A stretch of DNA of 39,113 bases. Source: Atribacterota bacterium. GTDB taxonomy: Bacteria; Atribacterota; Phoenicimicrobiia; Phoenicimicrobiales; Stramentimicrobiaceae. The stretch covers positions 1 through 39,113 of the forward strand of contig JAXGTM010000001.1 of NCBI GenBank assembly GCA_040774925.1. The letters are read 5' to 3'. The first letter of the stretch is position 1. The number at the start of each line of letters is the position of its first letter. Under the pieces are notes generated by a model, which worked only from the letters and a program-made list of their open reading frames with translations, was not told the DNA's origin and made no database searches. Positions 10,778 to 39,113 of the stretch are shown here, piece by piece. The translations under genes and the position numbers were made by a program.

Positions 10778-12727
10778 ATGGACAAAAATAAAGTATTTTA
10801 TATTACTACCCCGATCTATTATGTCAACGATGTTCCCCATATAGGGCATGCCTACACTACCATAGCAGCAGATACAATGGCTAGATATAAAAGGTTAAGA
10901 GGGTTTGATGTTCTCTTTGCTACCGGTACTGATGAGCACGGACAAAAGATTGCTAAATCTGCTGCTCAGCTGGGAATGACTCCACAGGAGCTGGCGGATA
11001 AAGTTGTAGTAAAATTTCAAGATCTTTGGAAAATTTTAGATATTAACCCAGATGATTTTATTAGGACTACCGAAAAACGGCATGAAGTGGTAGTACAGAA
11101 CATATTTAGTTTATTATATGAAAAGGGAGATATCTATAAAGGAGAATATGAAGGATGGTATTGTGTTCCCTGTGAAACATTCTGGCCTGAAAGTCAGATA
11201 GAAAAAGACATATGCCCCGATTGCGGCAGACCAGTTGAAAAGTTTAAAGAAGAAACATATTTTTTCCGGATGAGCAAATATCAGGAAAGGCTTTTGGAAC
11301 ACATTAAATCTCATCCTGATTGTATCAAACCTGAATCCCGGAAAAATGAAATTGTCAGTTTTATTAAGCAAGGATTAAGAGATCAGAGTGTAACCAGAAT
11401 AAAATCAAGTCTCAATTGGGGAATAGATGTCCCCTTTGATGACAACCATGTTGTTTATGTCTGGTTCGATGCTCTTATCAATTATCTTACCATTGCCGGT
11501 TATGGAATTGACGAGAAAAAGTTCAACAAATACTGGCCAGAGGTAGTACATCTTATTGGCAAAGATATACTGAGATTTCATACAATTATATGGTTTACCA
11601 TGCTGATGGCTGCCGACCTCACTCCACCCAGGATGGTCTTTTCCCATGGATGGTGGACGAGTGAAGGAGAAAAGATGTCTAAATCCAAAGGTAATGTTAT
11701 TGACCCTTATCAGGTAGCAGGAGAATTCGGTACAGATGCTTTTCGTTATTTCCTGTTAAGGGAGCTTTCTTTTGGTCAGGACGGAAATTTCTCACGTCAG
11801 TTATTAGTTAAGCGTATTAACTATGACCTTGCCAATGACCTTGGTAATCTTCTCAGTAGGACGGTTGCCATGACAATTAAATATTTTGATGGAAAGATTC
11901 CTTTGTCACCAGAAGGTAGTGAACATTTTGAGAAAGAACTGCAGTCTACTGCTGCCGAAACAGTTAAGCAAATGGTTGAGAATATGGACCAGTTTTCTTT
12001 CAACCTTGCTTTGGAAAATATCTGGACTCTGATAAAAAGGACCAATAAATATGTAGATGAGACTGAACCATGGATACTGGGCAGAGATAAAAATAAAAAG
12101 AAAAGATTGGAAGAAGTTATTTATCATCTATGCGAGTCTCTTAGGATAACAGCAATTTTACTATATCCTTTTATGCCCTCTACTTCGGTTAAAATTTGGA
12201 AACAACTGGGTATAGAAGATGATATTGAGAAAATGTCTATCCCTGAAGACACGAGCTGGGGCAGAATGAAGGCAGACATTATTGTAAAAGAGAATAAAAG
12301 TCTATTTCCAAGAATTGACGAGAAAACTACTGGTATTACCGATCGCAATATTTCCAATAAATTAGATTGTGTTGAAAAAAAGAAAGTGGCTGAACCTCAG
12401 AAACCGATTATCTCTATTTCAGAATTTCAAAAAATAGACCTGAGAGTGGGTAGAGTTATTTCAGCAGAAAAAGTAGAAGGTGCAAGTAAGCTTTTAAAGA
12501 TGTGCGTAGATTTTGAAAATGAGCAAAGAACTCTGGTTGCCGGAATAAAGGAGTTCTATAATCCAGAAGAAGTCGTAGGGAAAAACATTGTTGTGGTTTA
12601 TAATCTTGCTCCCGCTAAGATAAGAGGAATTGAATCACAGGGAATGCTGCTTGCTGCTTCCAATGAAGAGGGTGTCGTTCTATTAACTACCGACCAGGAT
12701 ATATCTCCAGGTAGTAAAATTAGATAG
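10778..12727 (+). CDS. metG: Methionine--tRNA ligase with C-terminal tRNA-binding (Trbp111/EMAP-like) domain
   Basis: Start set at MDKNKVFYITTPIYYVNDVPHIGH (HIGH motif); the ORF-track start at 10730 adds 16 non-conserved residues. KMSKS present, Zn knuckle CVPC...CPDC, C-terminal domain DLRVGRV...VAGI. Confidence 0.95.
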   Translation: MDKNKVFYITTPIYYVNDVPHIGHAYTTIAADTMARYKRLRGFDVLFATGTDEHGQKIAKSAAQLGMTPQELADKVVVKFQDLWKILDINPDDFIRTTEKRHEVVVQNIFSLLYEKGDIYKGEYEGWYCVPCETFWPESQIEKDICPDCGRPVEKFKEETYFFRMSKYQERLLEHIKSHPDCIKPESRKNEIVSFIKQGLRDQSVTRIKSSLNWGIDVPFDDNHVVYVWFDALINYLTIAGYGIDEKKFNKYWPEVVHLIGKDILRFHTIIWFTMLMAADLTPPRMVFSHGWWTSEGEKMSKSKGNVIDPYQVAGEFGTDAFRYFLLRELSFGQDGNFSRQLLVKRINYDLANDLGNLLSRTVAMTIKYFDGKIPLSPEGSEHFEKELQSTAAETVKQMVENMDQFSFNLALENIWTLIKRTNKYVDETEPWILGRDKNKKKRLEEVIYHLCESLRITAILLYPFMPSTSVKIWKQLGIEDDIEKMSIPEDTSWGRMKADIIVKENKSLFPRIDEKTTGITDRNISNKLDCVEKKKVAEPQKPIISISEFQKIDLRVGRVISAEKVEGASKLLKMCVDFENEQRTLVAGIKEFYNPEEVVGKNIVVVYNLAPAKIRGIESQGMLLAASNEEGVVLLTTDQDISPGSKIR

Positions 12728-15039: not shown

Positions 15040-16086
15040 ATGAACATTACAGAACTACTCAATATTACCAGTGAAATGGGTGCATCGGATTTACACCTGA
15101 CTGTTGGTGTGCCACCTACTTTAAGAATCAATGGTCTGCTTAATAAATTAGATTATCCAGATTTAAGTGAAGATGATGTCTTTGAAATGATCTATAGTTT
15201 ATTGAGCGAAGAACACCGTAAGAAATTTGTAGAATTAAAAGAAATAGATTTTTCTTTGGAAATCGTTAATGGTTCTCGCTTCAGAGTAAATGTTTTTATG
15301 CACAGACGTGGTATAGCAGGTGCATTTCGTTTAATTCCGGAAAAGATAAAATCCCTGGAAGAATTAGGTTTACCCTTAAGATTGGCTGATTTTACCAGAA
15401 AACCTAAAGGACTAGTTCTAATTACCGGACCAACCGGAAGCGGAAAATCAACCACTATTGCCAGTCTCATTGATATTATTAATGAAAACCAAAAACTTCA
15501 TATTATAACAATAGAAGACCCCATTGAGTTCATTCATAAACATAAAAGCTGTATTATTGACCAGCGTGAAGTCGGTGTACATACCAGGTCTTTTTCTTAT
15601 GCTTTAAGAAGTGCCCTGAGAGAAGACCCGGATATTATCATGGTTGGAGAGATGAGGGATCTTGAAACAATATCTATGGCAGTAACGGCTGCAGAAACAG
15701 GACATTTAGTATTTTCAACACTCCACACAAACAGTGCTGCTGAAACTGTCGAACGAATTATTGACGTATTTCCATCACATCAGCAGCGACAGGTTCGCAT
15801 TCAGCTTGCTGAATCTCTGCAGGGAGTTGTTACACAGACTTTACTTCCCAGCATTGACGAGAGTAAAAGATATCCCGCAATAGAGATAATGTTTGCCACA
15901 CCCGCTATTAAGAATATTATACGTGAGGAACGTATCCATATGATACCCACAACCATTCAAAGCTCTCAGCAGTTTGGCATGCAGACACTTGACCAGTCTA
16001 TCAGACAGCTGTATCTTAATCACATGATAGATAGAGAAACTGCCTTATCCAAAGCAAATGATCCTAAATTTGTAGTTCCACATTGA
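15040..16086 (+). CDS. pilT: Type IV pilus retraction ATPase PilT, paralogue 1
   Basis: Walker A GPTGSGKST, Walker B IIMVGEMRD, His box GHLVFSTLHTN, PilT signature AIKNIIRE. About 348 aa. Confidence 0.9.
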   Translation: MNITELLNITSEMGASDLHLTVGVPPTLRINGLLNKLDYPDLSEDDVFEMIYSLLSEEHRKKFVELKEIDFSLEIVNGSRFRVNVFMHRRGIAGAFRLIPEKIKSLEELGLPLRLADFTRKPKGLVLITGPTGSGKSTTIASLIDIINENQKLHIITIEDPIEFIHKHKSCIIDQREVGVHTRSFSYALRSALREDPDIIMVGEMRDLETISMAVTAAETGHLVFSTLHTNSAAETVERIIDVFPSHQQRQVRIQLAESLQGVVTQTLLPSIDESKRYPAIEIMFATPAIKNIIREERIHMIPTTIQSSQQFGMQTLDQSIRQLYLNHMIDRETALSKANDPKFVVPH

Positions 16087-16167: not shown

Positions 16168-16623
16168 ATGATTGAGAACAAAAGAAAAAGACTCGGAGAG
16201 TTATTATTCGAATATGGAATAATAACCGGAGAGGAATTAGTAAGAGCATTAGAAGAACAGAATATCAAAAATAAAAGAATTGGACAGATACTGCTCGAAT
16301 TGAAACTCGTAACACAGGATCAGATTAATTGGGTTTTAAGCAAACAATTAGACATCCCTTATATACAGATTGATACTGCACAGCTTGATATAGAGCTACT
16401 AAAAAGATTTCCTGACTATCTAATAAAAAATTACTATGTTATTCCTTTGTTAGAAATAAATGATACTCTGGCTTTAGCTATGAGTGACCCTACTGATGAG
16501 GAAGCCATTAAGAAAATTAAGTCTTTTTATAACAGAGATATAGAAGTATCACTGGCTTCCTTCAGAAATATTTTTGAAATTATTCAATACATTGAGAAAG
16601 AATTTCCACATATCTGGGAATAA
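16168..16623 (+). CDS. Stand-alone MshEN / GspE-N-terminal (T2SSE_N) domain protein, no ATPase domain
   Basis: Residues 8-60 give two 24-residue MshEN-type motifs (RLGELLFEYGIITGEELVRALEEQ, 5-residue spacer NIKNK, RIGQILLELKLVTQDQINWVLSKQ). They are followed by a T2SSE_N-like segment (LDIPYIQID...YYVIPLLEINDTLALAMSDPTDEEAIKKI). The protein ends at 151 aa. Confidence 0.75.
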   Translation: MIENKRKRLGELLFEYGIITGEELVRALEEQNIKNKRIGQILLELKLVTQDQINWVLSKQLDIPYIQIDTAQLDIELLKRFPDYLIKNYYVIPLLEINDTLALAMSDPTDEEAIKKIKSFYNRDIEVSLASFRNIFEIIQYIEKEFPHIWE

Positions 16624-16682: not shown

Positions 16683-17741
16683 ATGGATTTAACAATACAG
16701 GAAGTTTTGAGAAAAGCCAGGGAAATGGGGGCATCAGATGTCCATTTTAATGTTGGTATTCCACCGGTTTTCCGTTTAAATGGCAAATTAATAAAAAGTG
16801 ACTACCCCCTTTTAGATGCAGAGGGTGTACATAAGATTATTTACAGTATTTTATCAGATAAGCAGAAAGAGATGTTTGAAAAAGATAGACAGTTGGATTT
16901 TGCTTATGAGATACCAGGAGTGTCACGATTTAGAATAAACATTTTCCGTCATAGACTCGGGGAAGCGGCGGCAATAAGATTAATACCGACAAAAATAATG
17001 ACAATTGAACAGCTCGGGCTACCGGATATTATCCGTACCTTAGCAGAACATACCAGAGGGATTGTCCTTGTTACAGGACCAACCGGAAGTGGCAAATCAA
17101 CTACTCTGGCGGCACTTATAGATATAATTAACAGAACCCGTTATGAGCATATCATATCAATAGAAGACCCTATTGAATATATCCATTTTCACAAAAATTG
17201 TGTTATCTCACAAAGAGAAATAGGAGACCACACAGACTCTTTTGCCAGCGCTCTAAGGGTTGCTCTTAGAGAAGACCCTGATGTTATACTGGTTGGAGAG
17301 ATGAGGGACCTTGAAACTATCTCTATGGCTTTAAGGGCTGCGGAAACCGGACACCTTGTATTTTCAACACTTCACACAAACAGCGCTGCCGAAACCATTG
17401 AACGAATTGTTAATGCTTTTCCAGCGCATCAACAGGCGCAGGCAAGACTGCAGGTAGCAGGGACTATTGAGGCGGTCATTGCACAGACTCTTATTCCAAC
17501 TGCTGATGGTCAGGGCAGGGTAGCAGCAGCCGAACTGATGCTTGCTACCCCTGCAATACGTAATCTCATAAGAGATGAGAAAATATACCAAATTCCATCA
17601 AGTATTCAGATTAGTAGAAAAATTGGCATGCAGAGTCTTGATCAATCATTAAAAGATTTACTGATGGCAGGAAAAATTACCAGAGATGATGCTGTTAAAA
17701 GAGCAATAAATAAAAAGGCTTTTCTTGACTATTTAGAATAA
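16683..17741 (+). CDS. pilT: Type IV pilus retraction ATPase PilT, paralogue 2
   Basis: Walker A GPTGSGKST, VILVGEMRD, GHLVFSTLHTN, canonical AIRNLIRD(E) signature. About 352 aa. Confidence 0.9.
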   Translation: MDLTIQEVLRKAREMGASDVHFNVGIPPVFRLNGKLIKSDYPLLDAEGVHKIIYSILSDKQKEMFEKDRQLDFAYEIPGVSRFRINIFRHRLGEAAAIRLIPTKIMTIEQLGLPDIIRTLAEHTRGIVLVTGPTGSGKSTTLAALIDIINRTRYEHIISIEDPIEYIHFHKNCVISQREIGDHTDSFASALRVALREDPDVILVGEMRDLETISMALRAAETGHLVFSTLHTNSAAETIERIVNAFPAHQQAQARLQVAGTIEAVIAQTLIPTADGQGRVAAAELMLATPAIRNLIRDEKIYQIPSSIQISRKIGMQSLDQSLKDLLMAGKITRDDAVKRAINKKAFLDYLE

Positions 17742-23014: not shown

Positions 23015-23235
23015 AAAGTGTGACAACCGATAAGTTACCCTGCTGTGAACGCTTAACTGTATAAGTTTTGACCCAACACTTTTTAAAAAGGTAATCGACC
23101 TCCGAATGTGTAATGCAAGCCTGTGGTTCCCAAGAGGGTTACCTAAGATTAGCAGAGATGTTAATTAACTGGAAGCATAAAGCACTCGGGTAGATATCCA
23201 CCTGTTTGAGGGGTCGGTATCAAAACTTGTAGTTG
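23015..23235 (+). ncRNA. ssrS: Putative 6S RNA (SsrS); boundaries approximate
   Basis: About 220 nt with no plausible ORF, directly downstream of the promoter above. Extended imperfect 5'/3' complementarity (for example ACCGA 23027-23031 with TCGGT 23214-23218, CCC 23038-23040 with GGGG 23210-23213) and an apical helix (GGTAA..CCTC with GAGGGTTACC). Sits immediately upstream of the 5-formyl-THF cyclo-ligase gene, the classical ssrS-ygfA linkage. Confidence 0.55.
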
Positions 23236-23376
23236 GCGACATGGCGGGGTTATTCTTTATTTTAACCATATACCCAATTTATTTAATGGCTGTCAAAAAG
23301 TTTCATAAGTATCAAAAGTTTCAGAATATATAGAGTAAATCTACAATTCTATTGACAAGATATTGTTAGTTGTATT

Positions 23377-26197: not shown

Positions 26198-27919
26198 TTG
26201 GACATAAGGGATGAGAATAAGCCTTATCTTTCCAACCTGAAATTGGGTGAAATCCTTATAAATCAGGGTTATATAAAACCTGAACAATTAAAAAAAGCTT
26301 TAGATGCCCAAAAAACTGATGGGAAAAGTAAGATAGGAGAAATCCTTATAAATCAGGGTAGTATTACACAAAAACAGCTCAATGACGCATTACAGCATGT
26401 ATATGAAACTGAGTATGTTGAGCTTGATGATATTGTAATTGACCCTGAATTAATTTCCCTTATCCCCAAAAAGATAGCACAGCGTTTTAAATTGGTACCA
26501 CTGAACAAAGATGATAATGTTCTGACCATAGCTATGGCAAATCCTTTGGATTTTAACGCTATAAACTATATCAAAGAATATACCAAAATGGATATCAGAA
26601 CAAAATTTTCTTCAGAAAATGATATCTTAAATTCTTTAAGCAGCAGTTATGATGATGTATATCAGTTTGATGATCTCCTTGATAAAGTAGATGTTGCAAC
26701 AGTTATAGATATTTCAGATGAAGTCAATCTTTCTGCTCTGGAAGCAATAAGCCAGGAAGCGCCCATCATTCAGCTGGTAAACATGATTATAGTAGACGGC
26801 ATAAAAGAGCGAGCCAGTGACATACATTTAGAACCAAATCAAAGAGGTCTGCTCGTTAGATACCGTATAGACGGTATGTTGCATGATATTCGGTTATTGC
26901 CGGTAAGGGTGAAGCCTGCGGTAATATCGAGAGTCAAAATATTATCAAACATGGACATAGCTGAGAGAAGGCTGCCTCAGGACGGCCGTTTCCAACTGCG
27001 CTTTGGAGCCCGTGAAGTTGATTTGCGCGTATCCTCTATTCCTACTGTCCATGATGAAAAAATAGTAATGCGTCTTCTGGACAAGAGCCAGGGTGTCATC
27101 AGTCTTGACAGTGTTGGCTTTACCGGAGAGCAGGCAGAACAATTCCGCAAGATGATACATTATCCTCACGGCATTATTCTTTTAACCGGACCGACCGGCA
27201 GTGGAAAGAGTACCACTTTGTATGCTGCCTTAAATGAAGTAGATTCAACCAAAAAAAATATTATCACAGTAGAAGACCCGGTTGAATACAAACTTGACAG
27301 AATAAATCAAATTAATGTCAGACCAAAAATTAACCTTACCTTCGCCAATGCCCTGCGCTCCATACTGCGTCAGGACCCTGATGTCATCATGATAGGAGAG
27401 ATGAGAGACTCAGATACAGCTCATATAGCCATTCAGTCAGCACTTACAGGGCATCTTGTCTTAAGTACACTTCATACTAATGATGCAGTAAGCTCCTTAA
27501 CCAGAATGACCGATATGGGTGTTGAGCCATTCCTGATCTCTTCTTCTGTAATAGGAGTTATGGCACAAAGATTGGTACGCAAAATCTGCCCCAGATGTAT
27601 AGAAGATTATATTCCTGAAGAGAGTATATTCAATGAACTTAAACTGAATATTACCTTGCCTGACAGGGATAAAATAAGGCTTTACCGGGGAAAGGGATGC
27701 GACTATTGTAAAAATACCGGATACTACGGAAGAATAGCAATATTTGAAATGATAGAGATAAATGATGAAATACGCTCAATGATTTTAAGAAAAGTATCAA
27801 GTAATGAGATAAAAGAAACTGCCATTCGCTATGGTATGAAAACCCTTCTTGACAGTGGAATTAATAAGGCACTGGAAGGCGTTACATCTATTGACGAAGT
27901 ATTTCGTGTAGCAGTTTAA
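26198..27919 (+). CDS. pilB: Type IV pilus assembly ATPase PilB/GspE family, paralogue 1, with MshEN-type N-terminus
   Basis: AAGGAG RBS 7 nt before the TTG start. N-terminal tandem motifs, T2SSE_N segment, Walker A GPTGSGKST, IMIGEMRD, GHLVLSTLHTND, tetra-Cys CPRC...CDYC. Confidence 0.9.
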   Translation: MDIRDENKPYLSNLKLGEILINQGYIKPEQLKKALDAQKTDGKSKIGEILINQGSITQKQLNDALQHVYETEYVELDDIVIDPELISLIPKKIAQRFKLVPLNKDDNVLTIAMANPLDFNAINYIKEYTKMDIRTKFSSENDILNSLSSSYDDVYQFDDLLDKVDVATVIDISDEVNLSALEAISQEAPIIQLVNMIIVDGIKERASDIHLEPNQRGLLVRYRIDGMLHDIRLLPVRVKPAVISRVKILSNMDIAERRLPQDGRFQLRFGAREVDLRVSSIPTVHDEKIVMRLLDKSQGVISLDSVGFTGEQAEQFRKMIHYPHGIILLTGPTGSGKSTTLYAALNEVDSTKKNIITVEDPVEYKLDRINQINVRPKINLTFANALRSILRQDPDVIMIGEMRDSDTAHIAIQSALTGHLVLSTLHTNDAVSSLTRMTDMGVEPFLISSSVIGVMAQRLVRKICPRCIEDYIPEESIFNELKLNITLPDRDKIRLYRGKGCDYCKNTGYYGRIAIFEMIEINDEIRSMILRKVSSNEIKETAIRYGMKTLLDSGINKALEGVTSIDEVFRVAV

Positions 27920-33768: not shown

Positions 33769-34189
33769 TCATTATTCTTCCAAATTTACCCGCCTCAAAT
33801 CCTGTGTTTATAAATCCTTAACTTAATATCTGCATTCAAATAAAATCTATTCTTCTCATCACTTCTCATCTTTTTAACTCTTCTCACCCTATAAAATTAA
33901 CCTATAAATCTGCCTGTAACAGCACCTGAAAATTTTACGACTTTTCACAATAACGAAAAGTATAATAAAAAATACAAAATACAAATATTAAATTATCAGT
34001 TTAAGTATTAGCAGAAAGAGAAATTGTCAGTATAATATATAAGTGAAATACAGATATAATATTTAAAGTATTTGCCCTTTTTATTTTACGAAGGTATAAT
34101 ATTAAAAATTAATCCATCTAAAATAAATAATAAATAGCAATAAATAAAAAGGTCAATCCTGAAATCTGTAAGGAAAAGAAAGGTCAGAG

Positions 34190-35920
34190 ATGGTAGCCCG
34201 CTTTGTAAAAGAAAAAGGAATAACAGGCGATTTTTTATTAAATCTGCTGATAAATAAGAAAATTATCGGAAGCAAGGAAATAGACGATATTTGTCAGAAG
34301 CAGATTAATAATAAGACCTCTATCGAAAGAATTATCCTCTCTTCAGGCATAATAAACAAAAAAGAGATGATGAAACTACTTTCAGAAGAGATTGGCGTTC
34401 CCTATGTTGAGCTTGAGGGCAAGAGTTTTGACCCAACCGTCGTCGCTACACTATCTGAGGAGATTTCCCGTAAGCACAATATAGTTACTATCGGTAAAAA
34501 TAAGGGAAAACTCGTTGTCGCTATGGCAAACCCACTCGATGTCTACATACATGATGAGATCCGTATCACTACCGGTTTTGAAGTGGAGCCATACCTCGCT
34601 TTTAAAGATGATATCAATAAGGCGCTCGATTCAGTATACGGTATCACTGAAAACTGGCAAAACATGATAGGAGATATTGCCGCACTGCCCGTTACCGCTG
34701 TTGAAGAAGAAGCAGAGGAGATGGAGATAACAAAGGGTATTTCCGAAAGTCATGAGACTCCGGTTATCGCTCTGGTCAATCTTATTATGCTCAGAGCTAT
34801 CAAGGAGGGAGCGAGCGACATACATGTGGAACCTTCCGGTGATAAGAACCTCAAGGTTAGGTATCGTATTGACGGTATACTGCATGATATCATGTCACCT
34901 CCCAGAAGTCTGCATATGGCAATAATCTCCAGAATAAAGATTATGTCTAATCTTAATATAGCCGAAAGGCGTCTGCCGCAGGATGGAAGGATTAAGGTAC
35001 AGGTACACGGAAGAGAAGTTAATTTTAGAGTATCTACTATTCCGGCTGTTAATGGTGAAAGTGCTGTCTTGAGAATATTAGACCCGGCTCAAATAATGCT
35101 TGACCTGAAATCTATCGGTTTTTCTGATGAAAATTATGAAAAATATCAGCAGCTGATAGAAAAGCCAAATGGCATTATACTCGTTACAGGTCCTACCGGC
35201 AGCGGTAAATCTACTACCCTTTATGCAACCTTAAATATCTTAAATTCGGTAGAGAAAAAGATTATGACTATCGAAGATCCTGTTGAATACCGTTTGGATG
35301 GTATAAGTCAATTACAGGCAAAACCAAAAATAGGCCTCACCTTTGCTGCCGGATTGCGCAGTTTTCTCCGTCAGGACCCTGATATTATGCTGGTAGGAGA
35401 AATAAGGGATAAAGAGACAGCCGATATCGCTATACAGTCAGCTCTAACCGGCCATCTGGTCTTGAGTACTCTGCACACAAATGATGCGCCCAGTTCAGTC
35501 ATTCGTCTGGTAGATATGGGTATTGAACCATTTCTAATCTCATCATCAGTTATTGGAGTAGTTGCTCAGAGATTGGTGCGTAAGATATGTTCCTATTGTA
35601 AAAAAGAAGCTGCCATCACAGATGAGATAAAAATGGTTATGGAAGAGTTCAATATTCCCCCCGGTGAAATAAGACTATTCCATGGGGAAGGATGTCCACA
35701 TTGCAAGGGGACAGGTTATAAAGGCAGAACAGCAATATTTGAATTGATGGTGATAAATGAGCCGATAAGAGAATTAATTTACAAAAATGCGCCTATTTCT
35801 GAAATCAGAGCTACTGCTATAAAAAAAGGTGGAATGATTTCTTTAAAAGAAGATGGTTTAAATAAGATAAGTGAGGGTGTTACCACACTGGAAGAAGTAA
35901 TGCGAGCAACATCCAGCTGA
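34190..35920 (+). CDS. pilB: Type IV pilus assembly ATPase PilB/GspE family, paralogue 2
   Basis: T2SSE_N segment (VATLSEEISRKHNIVTIGKNKGKLVVAMANPLD), Walker A GPTGSGKST, MLVGEIRD, GHLVLSTLHTND, tetra-Cys CSYC...CPHC. Confidence 0.9.
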   Translation: MVARFVKEKGITGDFLLNLLINKKIIGSKEIDDICQKQINNKTSIERIILSSGIINKKEMMKLLSEEIGVPYVELEGKSFDPTVVATLSEEISRKHNIVTIGKNKGKLVVAMANPLDVYIHDEIRITTGFEVEPYLAFKDDINKALDSVYGITENWQNMIGDIAALPVTAVEEEAEEMEITKGISESHETPVIALVNLIMLRAIKEGASDIHVEPSGDKNLKVRYRIDGILHDIMSPPRSLHMAIISRIKIMSNLNIAERRLPQDGRIKVQVHGREVNFRVSTIPAVNGESAVLRILDPAQIMLDLKSIGFSDENYEKYQQLIEKPNGIILVTGPTGSGKSTTLYATLNILNSVEKKIMTIEDPVEYRLDGISQLQAKPKIGLTFAAGLRSFLRQDPDIMLVGEIRDKETADIAIQSALTGHLVLSTLHTNDAPSSVIRLVDMGIEPFLISSSVIGVVAQRLVRKICSYCKKEAAITDEIKMVMEEFNIPPGEIRLFHGEGCPHCKGTGYKGRTAIFELMVINEPIRELIYKNAPISEIRATAIKKGGMISLKEDGLNKISEGVTTLEEVMRATSS

Positions 35921-36281: not shown

Positions 36282-37490
36282 ATGGCAACCTATACCTATA
36301 GAGCCAGAGATAATGCTGGAAAATTATTTTCTGGAATAATGGAGGCAGATAGCCAGGAAGCAGTTATTGAACGCCTGAGAGAATTGAGATATTTTATCAT
36401 ATCAGTAAATAAAAAAAGACAGACCGGCTTATCTACCGAAATAAATCTTTTCAAAAGTATCAAGATAAGAGACCTGGCAATCTTCTACCGGCAATTTGCC
36501 ACAATGGTAAATGCAGGTCTCGCACTGGTCAGCTGTCTCGATATATTATCAAAACAGACCGAAAACAAACTGTTAGCCCGGAAGGTAGGAGAAATCAAAA
36601 AGAGTGTTGAGCAGGGCTCCACACTTGCCGATGCCTTTGCCAGTCACCCGGAGACCTTTTCCAAGCTGTATATCAACATGATTAAGGCCGGAGAGCTGGG
36701 CGGAGTGCTTGATGATGTTTTAAACCGTATGGCTACCCTGATGGAGAAAGAATATGAACTCCGTCAGAAAATTAAATCAGCTATGACCTATCCCGTCTTT
36801 ATCTTTGGGGCTGCCTTTGTAATGGGAATATTTGTCCTCGTTTTTATTTTACCCCAATTTGTACAGGTATTCCAGCAATTCGGCGGAGAGATGCCCTTTT
36901 TAACCAAGATGCTGGTCGCAGTGACTACGGCGTTTAACCGGTACTGGTATATCTTTTTTGGTGCGCTCGCTCTCCTTGTATTCGCTTTTCTATCCTATAA
37001 CCGTACCAAACAGGGTCATAAGAATATAGACCGATTAAAGTTAAAATTACCCATCTTTGGTAACCTCTTTTTAAAGACATCTATCAACCGTTTTACCAGA
37101 ACACTCGGCACCTTAATCCGCAGCGGGGTCCCCATTATTCAGTCTCTTAAAGTATCAGCAGAATCTATCGGTAATGATATTCTGGCAGAAGCGGTAATGA
37201 GTGCTGCGGAAAGAATTAAAGAGGGGCAGAGTATCTCCACACCGCTGGAGGAGAGCAGGGTATTTCCGCCTATGGTTACTCAGATGATTATGGTTGGTGA
37301 GGAGAGCGGTGAGCTGGAAAGTATGCTAATAAATGTTGCTCAGTTCTATGATCAGGAAGTGGAAAGAGCAGTTGAACAGCTTACCTCTGTCATAGAACCC
37401 ATTCTAATGATTGTTGTTGCCGGAGTTGTCGGCGTGATGGTTATAGCAATGTATCTCCCCATATTCAGTATGGTAAATTTAATACAGTAG
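36282..37490 (+). CDS. pilC: Type IV pilus platform protein PilC (GspF/T2SSF family)
   Basis: AGGAGG RBS. Two T2SSF repeats (FYRQFATMVNAGL... and FTRTLGTLIRSGVP...), three TM segments, about 402 aa. Confidence 0.9.
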   Translation: MATYTYRARDNAGKLFSGIMEADSQEAVIERLRELRYFIISVNKKRQTGLSTEINLFKSIKIRDLAIFYRQFATMVNAGLALVSCLDILSKQTENKLLARKVGEIKKSVEQGSTLADAFASHPETFSKLYINMIKAGELGGVLDDVLNRMATLMEKEYELRQKIKSAMTYPVFIFGAAFVMGIFVLVFILPQFVQVFQQFGGEMPFLTKMLVAVTTAFNRYWYIFFGALALLVFAFLSYNRTKQGHKNIDRLKLKLPIFGNLFLKTSINRFTRTLGTLIRSGVPIIQSLKVSAESIGNDILAEAVMSAAERIKEGQSISTPLEESRVFPPMVTQMIMVGEESGELESMLINVAQFYDQEVERAVEQLTSVIEPILMIVVAGVVGVMVIAMYLPIFSMVNLIQ

Positions 37491-37553
37491 GAGAAGCAGT
37501 AAGAGAAAGCAGCAATTATATATAATAATATATAGGTAGGAGTGGTAATAGTT

Positions 37554-38099
37554 ATGCCAGAAAAAGAGGCAGTCAGCAGTCCTGCTGAACAGAATAACAG
37601 CATGAAAATAGTTGAAGAACATATGGATTTTTTAAAAGAGATTGTAAAGGGTTTTGAAAATTCCGGTGAGCAGGAAGAAGACCTTCTTCAAGCCGGTTAT
37701 ATCGGTCTCTTGAATGCAGCTAATCTCTATCAGAAACAGGAAGACATCACATTTAAAGAATATGCCAATCATTTAATCAGCGGAGAGATAAGAAACTATA
37801 TCAGAGAAAAGAATAGAAGAACTAATATCCCTGAATGGCTCTCTGTAATGATAAATAAGATGCTTAACCAGCTGCTCTCATCATATCGGGCACAATATAA
37901 CAAATTTCCCGATATAAATGAACTTTCCCGTATGCTGGAACTCTCACCCGATATACTGAAGGAAGCGCTTAAAGCGCGAAAAGCTGCGCAGGAGATATCT
38001 ATTGACAGACAGAGGAGAGAGCTGATTGACCTGCAGGAGCCGATAGATATCTCAAAAATAAGAAGAGAAATTAAGAACAGAAAATATGGTAACAAATAA
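37554..38099 (+). CDS. Sigma-70-family paralogue containing regions 2 and 3.0 only (no region 4)
   Basis: ATG 37554 lies 11 nt after AGGAG (37538-37542); the track's GTG 37542 overlaps the RBS. EDLLQAGYIGLLNAANLY...FKEYANHLISGEIRNYIRE aligns with region 2 of the downstream sigma, and ELSRMLELSPDILKEALKA aligns with its region 3.0. The protein ends in a basic tail with no HTH. Confidence 0.6.
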   Translation: MPEKEAVSSPAEQNNSMKIVEEHMDFLKEIVKGFENSGEQEEDLLQAGYIGLLNAANLYQKQEDITFKEYANHLISGEIRNYIREKNRRTNIPEWLSVMINKMLNQLLSSYRAQYNKFPDINELSRMLELSPDILKEALKARKAAQEISIDRQRRELIDLQEPIDISKIRREIKNRKYGNK

Positions 38100-38781
38100 G
38101 ATTAGTGATGATATTGTCCATAAATATAAACCGTTGGTCAGGTCTATAGCCCTTAAATATATCAATTCCGGTGAACTGCTGGAAGATCTGGAGCAGATTG
38201 GTTACCTGGGGTTAATAAATGCTCACAACCTCTTCGATGAAAAGAAGGGTGTCAAATTTGAGACATATGCCTACTGGCTTATAAATGGAGAAATACGTCA
38301 CTATATCCGGGACAAAAACTCAGTGGTGAAGATTCCACACTGGATAAGGGATTATAACCGTAAAATTGACTCCTTTATAGAATCCTTCCGTAAGGAACAC
38401 CGGAGATTCCCCACTGTGGAAGAGATGTCAGCACATTTCAATATCACCGAAGAGGGTATTATGGAAATCCTGAAGGGCAGAAATGCTGTACAGGTGGTCT
38501 CTTTAGATAAAGGATTGAGACAGAATGATGAATCGACTATCCCTGTCCTGGATAAAATTAAAAGTAAAGAATATCAGAGCTTTCAGCTCCCGATAGAAGA
38601 TGTCATCTTCTTAAAGAATATTTTTAATAAACTGAAGACAATTCAAAAACAGGTAATCTATTACATCTTTTACAAGGACCTGACTCAGGTCAATATTGCT
38701 AAAAGAATGGGGCTAACCCAGAGGCAGGTTTCCCGTATCAAACAGGAAGCATTAGAAGAACTAAGAAAGAATTTTGAATAA
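38086..38781 (+). CDS. RNA polymerase sigma factor, group 3 (SigB/F/G / FliA-like)
   Basis: Region 2 (EDLEQIGYLGLINAHNLFD...FETYAYWLINGEIRHYIRD), region 3, and region 4.2 HTH (LTQVNIAKRMGLTQRQVSRIKQEALEELR). Start overlaps the upstream gene by 14 nt. Confidence 0.8.
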   Translation: MVTNKISDDIVHKYKPLVRSIALKYINSGELLEDLEQIGYLGLINAHNLFDEKKGVKFETYAYWLINGEIRHYIRDKNSVVKIPHWIRDYNRKIDSFIESFRKEHRRFPTVEEMSAHFNITEEGIMEILKGRNAVQVVSLDKGLRQNDESTIPVLDKIKSKEYQSFQLPIEDVIFLKNIFNKLKTIQKQVIYYIFYKDLTQVNIAKRMGLTQRQVSRIKQEALEELRKNFE

Positions 38782-38795
38782 AGGAGTTAGACAGA

Positions 38796-39113
38796 ATGCT
38801 TGGTAAAAAGATAGTGGTAAAATACAACAATGGTTCTTTAGTAAAGGGGTTTACTATAGATTTCAATCCAGATGAAGATATCTTCCATCTCTATGTTATA
38901 GATGAAGAGACGGAAGAGGCAGATGAAGATAAAAAGATAAAAATAAATATCAATGATATAAAAGCGGTCTTCTTTGTGAAGAGCTTTAAAGGGAATAAGG
39001 ATTACAAAAAAGTCAGGACCTTTAATGGCTATCCTGCAGGCGCTCTCACCGAACGGAGAATAATTGTTATTTTTAAAGATGGTGAAAATTTTTACGGCAC
39101 CACACACAGCTAT
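38796..39113 (+). CDS. Hypothetical protein, 3'-truncated by the window edge; not in the supplied ORF track
   Basis: ATG 38796 lies 9 nt after AAGGAG (38781-38786). The frame stays open to the window end (MLGKKIVVKYNNGSLVKGFTIDFNPDEDIFHLYVIDEE...IKAVFFVKSFKGNKDY...RRIIVIFKDGENFYGTTHSY). Co-directional with all neighbours. Confidence 0.6.
   Translation, partial: MLGKKIVVKYNNGSLVKGFTIDFNPDEDIFHLYVIDEETEEADEDKKIKININDIKAVFFVKSFKGNKDYKKVRTFNGYPAGALTERRIIVIFKDGENFYGTTHSY

Follow-up and report, generated by a model that had tools for sequence, protein, structure and literature searches.

Can a sigma factor that lacks the part responsible for −35 contacts be a working component of bacterial transcription? 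This question is raised by one end of a 39,113-nucleotide (nt) stretch of contig JAXGTM010000001.1 (Atribacterota bacterium, assembly GCA_040774925.1, positions 1 to 39,113 of the forward strand), which was analysed over its whole length and is called the window here. A sigma paralogue of 181 amino acids (aa) that consists of sigma2, sigma3 and region 3.2 without region 4 (the short sigma, 37554–38099, + strand) lies directly upstream of a full-length, 231-aa group-3 sigma factor (the long sigma, 38086–38781, +) in a type IV pilus gene cluster. In the sigma70 family, the beta-prime clamp helices are contacted by regions 2.1 and 2.2, more of the core by sigma3 and region 3.2, and the beta-flap and the −35 element by region 4. 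Region 4 counts as a defining feature of these factors, and the short family runs against that. The short gene is functional and under strong purifying selection, with no recent truncation, and our tentative preference is that its product binds core RNA polymerase (RNAP) and tunes its co-translated partner.

The domain content of the short sigma was established from its open reading frame (ORF), Pfam, NCBIfam, BLASTP, an AlphaFold2 (AF2) model and a family alignment. The ORF runs from ATG 37554 to the stop codon at 38097–38099, and direct reading of the sequence places an AGGAG Shine-Dalgarno sequence (37538–37542, +) 11 nt 5′ of the ATG; a GTG at 37542 that could also serve as start is probably not used, since it lies inside this Shine-Dalgarno sequence. 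The sole Pfam match of the protein was Sigma70_r2 (residues 19–89, 42.3 bits, gathering score 24), and no region 4 or helix-turn-helix match was found in Pfam even at E ≤ 1. Region 2 (37608–37820, +) is further supported by family invariants and paired conservation, with the core-binding region 2.2 (LLQAGYIGLLNA) and the region 2.4 helix (GEIRNYIREK) invariant within the short family. Pfam returned no region 3 match for the short protein, but sigma3 is still supported by several other lines of evidence. BLASTP aligned 138 aa with the long protein at 38% identity (E = 1e-33), covering the region 3 segment of the latter, TIGR02980 was matched over profile positions 4–143 of 227 (85.5 bits), and the AF2 model contains sigma3 helices at residues 94–115, 121–127 and 132–147, which together place regions 3.0 and 3.1 at residues ~91–147 (37824–37994, +). 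In the alignment with full-length relatives, these are followed by region 3.2 (SIDRQRRELIDLQEPIDISKI), which carries the shared motif SID..RR..D..P.ID..KI[KR], and a short basic tail (RREIKNRKYGNK) that is conserved and under purifying selection (37995–38096, + for both). The C-terminus lies 8–10 residues past region 3.2, immediately before the point at which region 4.1 of the long protein begins (QSFQLPIED).

The AF2 model as a whole (predicted local distance difference test, pLDDT, 68; moderate confidence) comprises sigma2, the sigma3 helices and one C-terminal helix, and all of its top Foldseek matches in the PDB are sigma factors. The nearest PDB sequences are S. aureus sigmaB (8x6g_H) and G. 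stearothermophilus sigmaF from its complex with SpoIIAB (1l0o_C). To look for a vestigial or separate region 4, four region 4 queries were run by tblastn in all frames against the window and 19 related loci (L001–L019), and they recovered only the long sigma's own copy. An earlier note, made from the letters of this DNA without database searches, had described the upstream protein as a region-4-less paralogue next to a complete sigma, with no decayed region 4 between the two, and this description stands. It had also pointed to a Lys/Arg-rich tail, which is present; what it did not take up is that the tail composition may partly reflect dual coding, because the long gene has its start codon in the purine-rich stretch of tail codons, which also serves as the translation-initiation region of that gene. 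The short protein showed no homology to known anti-sigma families, its significant Pfam and NCBIfam matches being to sigma families only, so that any brake-like action would come from mimicry and not from membership of such a family.

The long protein is a divergent but otherwise ordinary group-3 sigma, nearest to SigB/SigF/SigG. Its Pfam matches to region 2 (67.2 bits), region 3 (36.6 bits) and region 4 (48.7 bits) all exceed the gathering scores, and TIGR02980, the SigB/F/G model that is the top NCBIfam match of short and long proteins alike, is matched over the full length at 200.5 bits. Both proteins miss the curated cut-off of this model (234.35 bits) and are, by their scores, related to the subfamily as NCBI delimits it, yet outside it. 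The region 4.2 helix-turn-helix of the long sigma (IAKRMGLTQRQVSRIK; 38695–38742, +) lies within its Pfam Sigma70_r4 match at residues 181–228, and in the family alignment its recognition helix QRQVSRIK is kept in all full-length Atribacterota copies. Judged by domain content, this helix-turn-helix is the sole −35 reader of the pair.

Loss of region 4 is a stable property of a whole family. A protein search returned 31 clusters of short proteins, 173–186 aa long and 99% to 49% identical, beyond which only full-length sigmas were found; within the family, identity falls as low as 44%. An alignment of 22 members has 40 invariant residues spread over the whole length, in region 2.2, the 2.4 helix, the P.W motif of region 3.0 and the motifs of region 3.2 and the tail. 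Between pairs of species, the proportion of nonsynonymous differences (pN) in the short gene, tail included, is 0.13–0.21 against a saturated synonymous proportion (pS) of 0.63–0.9, and the ratio of nonsynonymous to synonymous rates (dN/dS) is ~0.05–0.12 where computable, a range like that of the long sigma. The two findings that the earlier note had named as fatal to its reading, a region 4 helix-turn-helix in the short protein and a recent truncation or pseudogene, were both absent. A profile search of 1.84 billion representative proteins gave 4 matches below 1e-30, the family being essentially one cluster at 50% identity; the remaining profile matches of <200 aa look like contig-end fragments and were rejected as further region-4-less group-3 sigmas. 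Many proteins of 400–480 aa (e.g. P0058, P0063, P0067 and P0070, 409–470 aa) have an N-terminal sigma2–sigma3 part like that of the short family followed by ~250 residues. No viral relatives of the short protein were found in IMG/VR, and a phage origin of the gene was rejected on these grounds and from its neighbours, which are housekeeping and pilus genes.

The ancestry of the short gene was examined in a neighbour-joining (NJ) tree of regions 2–3 (140 columns, 100 bootstraps). The short family is monophyletic (100%), on a long branch and without frameshifted members; an apparent short/long chimera in one locus (L016) was explained by a gap in the scaffold, filled with 100 Ns. The short family falls outside a clade of all full-length Atribacterota copies (95%), within which the two sigma copies of a sister family cluster together (86%). 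Several motifs are common to the short family and sigmas of Bipolaricaulota and Thermotogota and altered in the long copies, namely QAGYIGLLNA, YA.HLI and the SID..RR..D..P.ID form of region 3.2. Because of the clade that excludes it and these shared motifs, the short gene appears to be a separate lineage and not a copy of the neighbouring long gene, and the same tree speaks against its being the positional orthologue of the upstream one of the sister family's two full-length sigmas. Either it is an older paralogue whose region 4 was lost in the Stramentimicrobiaceae, or the tree is misled by long-branch attraction. A third sigma lineage occurs in the same bacterial family (L074 132–848, Candidatus (Ca.) Oleincola secundus, with a fragment, P0062): it is full-length (238 aa), sits in a different gene context and has divergent region 2.4 (TKEIHQYLMDSK) and 4.2 (SQGRADQIK) helices. 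In the same tree it joined the short family, which may be an effect of long-branch attraction.

The short family is assigned to Atribacterota by genome records, with Ca. Stramentimicrobium fermentans and Ca. Oleihabitans oleiphilus as anchors, both of the family Ca. Stramentimicrobiaceae in the class Ca. Phoenicimicrobiia; their samples suggest subsurface and digester habitats for the named genomes. In each of the 13 species-level loci that carry both genes, the short gene is flanked by pilC and the long sigma, a pairing whose conservation in relatives the earlier note had left to be checked, and the gene order is always udk, HAD phosphatase, pilB, pilC, short sigma, long sigma, DUF6982 (often followed by a second DUF6982) and pilins. 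In the window, the pair follows pilB2, which encodes a type IV pilus assembly ATPase (MshEN + T2SSE; 34190–35920, +; assigned from the ORF and Pfam matches of orthologues, and conserved in position in both Atribacterota families), and pilC, for the platform protein (T2SSF; 36282–37490, +), which is separated from the short sigma by 63 nt. The sister family Ca. Phoenicimicrobiaceae (Ca. Sediminicultor, SCGC AAA255-G05 and others), of the same class, has the same block, and at the position of the pair it carries two full-length sigmas of 231–246 and 236–253 aa. The earlier note foresaw neither these two full-length sigmas nor an old, separate short lineage.

The two genes of the pair are joined closely. 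In the window they overlap by 14 nt (38086–38099, +), as the earlier note had stated, with the ATG of the long sigma in the +1 frame within the final codons of the short gene and no Shine-Dalgarno sequence of its own. Across the short-sigma family, 11 of 13 species have overlaps of 4–29 nt, one has abutting genes and one a 38-nt gap, and where the genes overlap the long gene lacks a proper Shine-Dalgarno sequence. In the sister family the two sigma genes are separated by spacers of 17–98 nt, most with a GGAGG Shine-Dalgarno sequence. The form of the junction and the loss of region 4 have thereby changed in concert. The architecture of the junction in 11 of 13 species supports translational coupling, which had also been proposed earlier, and translation of the long sigma appears to depend on that of the short gene. 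Sigma/anti-sigma modules often show a coupled arrangement of this kind. A frameshift fusion of both ORFs was considered and rejected, given the +1 frame of the long gene, an overlap that differs in length between species (4 to 29 nt, with none in two of them) and the lack of any obvious slippery sequence in the 14 nt shared in the window.

Conserved promoters offer a view of what the pair may control. A motif scan of 24 non-redundant loci from both families found GTCTAA-N13/14-[GT]GGAATA at 22 sites on the + (gene) strand and none on the − strand, with 0.045 expected. The sites lie upstream of type IV pilin genes in both Atribacterota families, and their full form is GTCTAA-N13/14-T-N-GGGAATA, with an invariant T two bases 5′ of GGG. 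Beyond the end of the window, the same lineage (L088) has two pilin genes, each preceded by GTCTAA-N13-GGGAATAA (1799–1826 and 2397–2424); others are at L001 10903 and 11493, L013 9920, 10519 and 12784, and L021 8661 and 9386, among further loci. All sites of the family with two full-length sigmas have a 14-nt spacer, and 9 of 13 sites of the short-sigma family have one of 13 nt. The motif resembles the B. subtilis sigmaB consensus, GTTTAA-N12-14-GGGTAT. Adjacency and the resemblance to the sigmaB/F consensus make the long sigma the presumed user of the pilin promoters, and its conserved QRQVSRIK helix fits the shared −35 element. Of the pair, the long sigma alone could read the −35 element that these promoters possess. 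Control of a pilus regulon, at which position next to pilB2–pilC had earlier hinted, gains support from this conserved two-part, sigmaB/F-like promoter before the downstream pilin genes.

Every intergenic copy of the −10 element that we found is accompanied by the −35 GTCTAA; copies of T-N-GGGAATA without a −35 element did not rise above background in 143 kb of related sequence, and k-mer enrichment in these ~143 kb of related loci revealed no second enriched intergenic motif. The sigma pair itself seems to be expressed together with pilB2–pilC. A housekeeping-type promoter candidate, TTGCCC-N17-TATAAT (34072–34100, +), lies 90 nt 5′ of pilB2; its pattern is matched once in the window and in none of 100 shuffles, and it occurs at the same position in L001, L010, L018 and L087. 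The regions upstream of pilB/pilC are too divergent to align, and this promoter is their sole conserved block. No terminator-like site was found on the + strand between 33700 and 39113, and the candidate probably drives pilB2, pilC, the short sigma, the long sigma and DUF6982.

Two further features of the intergenic DNA were observed. In the Ca. Phoenicimicrobiaceae, a second conserved element, G[CT][CT]TAAC[CT]CA[CT]GAAGAAG[CT][AG]TGGAATA, lies 80–400 nt 5′ of the first sigma gene (L020 7051, L024 2367, L025 963, L026 3409, also L022 4146). It resembles a weaker pilin promoter, which could mean auto-regulation; no such element was found in the short-sigma family. In addition, tandem arrays of 7–8-nt repeats fill the DNA just 5′ of pilin promoters, with units that vary by species ((AACTAATT)n, AAACCAA, TAATACG-like). 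Such tracts occupy L088 1525–1660 and 1730–1790, and similar ones lie upstream of pilin or DUF6982 genes in L001 (~10830–10880), L007, L015 and L019.

To see which functions have been preserved in the short protein, mean pairwise identities of the short and long proteins were compared region by region in the same 13 species. The core-docking parts of the short protein are as well conserved as those of its partner or slightly better: 0.83 (short) and 0.79 (long) in region 2.2, 0.62 and 0.57 in region 3.0, 0.72 and 0.69 in region 3.1, and 0.60 and 0.57 in region 3.2. Identity is clearly lower than in the partner in region 2.3, the region of melting and non-template-strand contacts (0.64 against 0.90), and in the loop between regions 2.2 and 2.3 that precedes it (0.40 against 0.76). 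The equivalent of sigma70 Y430 has been lost in one sub-clade of the short family, and the W433 equivalent is variable.

From domain content, conservation, synteny, junction architecture and the promoter motif, which are observed, we infer core binding and the direction of its effect. The short protein should dock on core RNAP through its intact regions 2.1/2.2, 3 and 3.2 and, to judge from its sequence, cannot contact the beta-flap or read the −35 GTCTAA because it has no region 4. In the sequence of events that we envisage, the short gene would be co-transcribed with pilB2–pilC from the housekeeping-type promoter, and its product would be translated just ahead of the full-length sigma of the pilus cluster, whose translation would depend on the short gene. 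The full-length sigma would then use the pilin promoters GTCTAA-N13/14-T-N-GGGAATA. The short protein could act as a built-in competitor that sits on core polymerase, and perhaps also on the shared −10 element, but starts no productive −35-dependent transcription, and this competition would set or buffer the amount of pilin transcription driven by the long partner. We lean tentatively towards such tuning of the partner because the core-docking regions are conserved, region 2.3 is weaker, neither −35-less promoter copies nor a second motif was found, and the gene occupies a coupled upstream position.

Several points weigh against this proposal. First, the 2.4 helix, the P.W motif of region 3.0 and the 3.2 finger are strongly conserved in the short family. 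Second, several positions in regions 2.3 and 3.0 are conserved but unlike those of the partner (E/Q69, R/K72, K/R88–89, D/E94), a pattern that fits changed DNA specificity as well as decay. Third, without region 4 the short protein should bind core and −35 promoters less well than its partner and be a weak competitor unless in excess, and its competition for core would lack specificity for the partner. Fourth, the natural sigma2-only proteins known to us, T4 gp55 and B. subtilis RsoA, are real promoter-recognition subunits and not decoys. Lastly, the promoter searches were confined to the neighbourhood of the cluster.

Much of this speaks for a different role, almost as strong a candidate as the competitor and of similarly low confidence, in which the short protein is a true sigma for −35-independent promoters whose holoenzyme reads an information-rich or extended −10 element and, side by side with the long sigma, transcribes a separate set of genes of the pilus programme. 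The 2.4 helix (GEIR[NH]YIREK), the P.W motif and the 3.2 finger are kept as strictly as in genuine sigmas, and the conserved but different residues in regions 2.3 and 3.0, together with a 1-aa insertion in region 3.0 of the short family relative to the partner, suggest a specificity that has shifted and not been lost. Both Atribacterota families keep two sigmas in the cluster, which suggests that the programme needs two, and the local −10 element (T-N-GGGAATAA) is long, of a type that could initiate without a −35 element. A protein without region 4 would moreover be a handicapped competitor, and T4 gp55, RsoA and, reportedly, sigma70 lacking region 4 provide precedents for initiation by such proteins. 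However, the ~143 kb of related loci hold neither −35-less −10 copies above background nor a second intergenic motif, and the melting region 2.3 is the least conserved relative to the partner, with the Y430 equivalent lost in one sub-clade.

It is improbable, in our judgement, that the short protein is instead an anti-sigma decoy. In that case it would retain the sigma2 and sigma3 surfaces gripped by anti-sigma factors of this family and would release the long sigma by soaking up an inhibitor, possibly DUF6982 or an RsbW-like kinase from another part of the genome. Its nearest solved relatives by sequence include sigmaF bound to the anti-sigma SpoIIAB (1l0o_C), a complex in which the contact is on sigma3, and sigma3 is conserved in the short protein as in its partner. 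The region 3′ of the sigma pair also offers candidates: a DUF6982 gene of ~150 aa always lies there, usually as two paralogues that have no assigned function. In the window it is represented by its first 106 codons (154 aa in full), cut at the window end (38796–39113, +; Pfam PF22478 and synteny); the full-length protein P0197 is 100% identical over this portion, and a full-length gene lies at L087 6604–7068. The AF2 model of DUF6982 (pLDDT 71) consists of two small beta-barrels with weak Tudor/Sm-like matches in the PDB, and relatives are labelled 'snRNP-like' in some sources; this fold gave no clear sign of an anti-sigma or PilZ protein. It may be part of the same regulatory module as the sigma pair, but nothing ties it to sigma binding, and it is equally present where both sigmas are full length. 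The SpoIIAA/AB- or RsbW-type partners that the earlier note had thought worth seeking beyond the window are not in the window itself, and no STAS, RsbW/SpoIIAB or FlgM-type gene was found in the window or the conserved cluster.

Less probable again is a split sigma, as the earlier note had suggested by comparison with SigO-RsoA of B. subtilis and gp55/gp33 of phage T4, in which a separate protein would supply the upstream-DNA and beta-flap contacts in place of region 4. The short protein ends exactly at the 3.2/4.1 border, a natural domain boundary, and precedents exist. SigO and RsoA are complementary parts whose sigma-related genes are neighbours expressed together, with an incomplete domain set in one of the two, and the genes of the Atribacterota pair likewise overlap or abut in 12 of 13 species with no terminator-like site between them. 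Here, however, the adjacent partner is complete (regions 2, 3 and 4) and not a complementary half, and the short protein retains sigma2, sigma3 and region 3.2. T4 gp55 is a natural region-4-less protein of the sigma family that recognises only a −10-type element; it is minimal and sigma2-like, and needs gp33 and gp45. In contrast, the Atribacterota short protein is cellular, keeps sigma3 and region 3.2 and has no IMG/VR relatives. The cluster of the short-sigma family holds no gene that the sister family's cluster lacks and hence no extra gene as a gp33-like neighbour, although no homology search aimed at gp33 was made. Given a complete partner, and with the window and the 19 related loci free in all frames of any second region 4, whether stand-alone or vestigial, the split-sigma option fits poorly; SigO-RsoA itself has an entry in PMC10141391.

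In the last explanation, the short gene is a decaying tandem duplicate without a function of its own that persists solely because the start of the long gene falls inside it. This could account for some indirect constraint, as the long gene without a Shine-Dalgarno sequence has its start codon in the 3′ end of the short gene, but it is effectively refuted by the conserved length of 173–186 aa in 31 clusters, the 40 invariant residues over the whole protein, a pN far under the saturated pS along the full gene as in the long sigma, and a monophyletic family (100% bootstrap) free of frameshifts, the lone exception being the scaffold gap in L016.

Returning to the short protein as a probable core-binding tuner or −35-independent sigma, other known systems share parts of its arrangement. 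The SigB/SigF/SigG group-3 sigmas are the closest by sequence, as both proteins score best against TIGR02980 and the top PDB sequence matches belong there; unlike them, the short protein has no region 4, and the pair has no anti-sigma/anti-anti-sigma partner-switching genes nearby. An engineered E. coli sigma70 without region 4, which has the same domain content as the short protein but is a laboratory truncation of a group-1 sigma, reportedly still forms holoenzyme and initiates at extended −10 promoters. In Synechocystis, transcription of the type IV pilin gene pilA1 depends on the cyanobacterial group-3 sigma SigF, which also controls its own gene (Asayama & Imamura 2008, PMC2532724), and the pilA1 promoter has an unusual two-part form, with −32 TAGGC and −12 GGTAA (PMC2532724). 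The likeness lies in a group-3 sigma and pilin genes with a two-part promoter, here with a GG-rich −10 element and a sigma encoded in the pilus cluster. SigF differs in being one full-length sigma without a region-4-less partner and in being self-regulated, while the pair in the window's family is apparently under a housekeeping-type promoter and its link to the pilin promoters is one that we infer. A cyanobacterial family of region-2-only sigma-like proteins, H.1, also lacks region 4; it was noted from domain architecture, is uncharacterised and derives from ECF-like (extracytoplasmic function) ancestors with regions 2 and 4 (PMC11119718). The short family differs from it in being group-3-derived, in retaining sigma3 and region 3.2 and in being fixed beside a full-length partner.

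We know of no cellular sigma factor of the group-3 type without region 4, and we found no description of the short family in the literature on truncated, split or mimic sigmas or on Atribacterota sigma factors. Surveys often require both region 2 and region 4 to count a protein as a sigma (an example of this criterion is in PMC9205884), and proteins like the short sigma are filtered out because both are required. On balance we expect that a group-3 paralogue has here been kept long and vertically, without region 4, as a working part of transcription in a coupled pair controlling type IV pilins, which would make it either the first natural non-phage sigma to initiate without −35 or beta-flap contact or the first sigma-derived mimic to compete with its own partner for core. 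The locus can be seen as a natural, conserved version of the experiment 'sigma without region 4', with the full-length operon partner and the sister family with two full-length copies as controls. Since the target promoter is defined (GTCTAA-N13/14-T-N-GGGAATA), a role without −35 or beta-flap contacts is testable with few purified proteins, and these internal controls and the defined promoter make the pair of interest for research on transcription initiation. It also provides a first route into gene regulation, specifically that of type IV pili, in the class Ca. Phoenicimicrobiia of Atribacterota, of which we know no cultured member.

The rest of the window holds housekeeping genes and further pilus ATPases. 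All credible genes of the 39 kb are on the + strand, and the only two minus-strand ORFs of at least 120 aa both lie inside + genes. The only Rfam match in the window is a 6S/SsrS RNA gene (23034–23254, +; RF00013, 74.9 bits; gathering score 46.4), which is flanked by aspS and the gene for 5-formyltetrahydrofolate cyclo-ligase. 6S RNA is a regulator of sigma holoenzymes; the gene is 14 kb from the sigma pair, with nothing connecting them. In one species the pilus cluster is interrupted (L004 9794–10171; L005 4780–7733) by inserted genes for a 23S-rRNA-IVP/bAvd-like four-helix protein between the DUF6982 genes, HicA and ParE toxins and an AAA_14/DUF4143 ATPase. Pilus motor genes are scattered through the window, with two PilT-like ATPases (15040–16086 and 16683–17741), a stand-alone MshEN ORF between them (16168–16623) and a second PilB-type ATPase (26198–27919).

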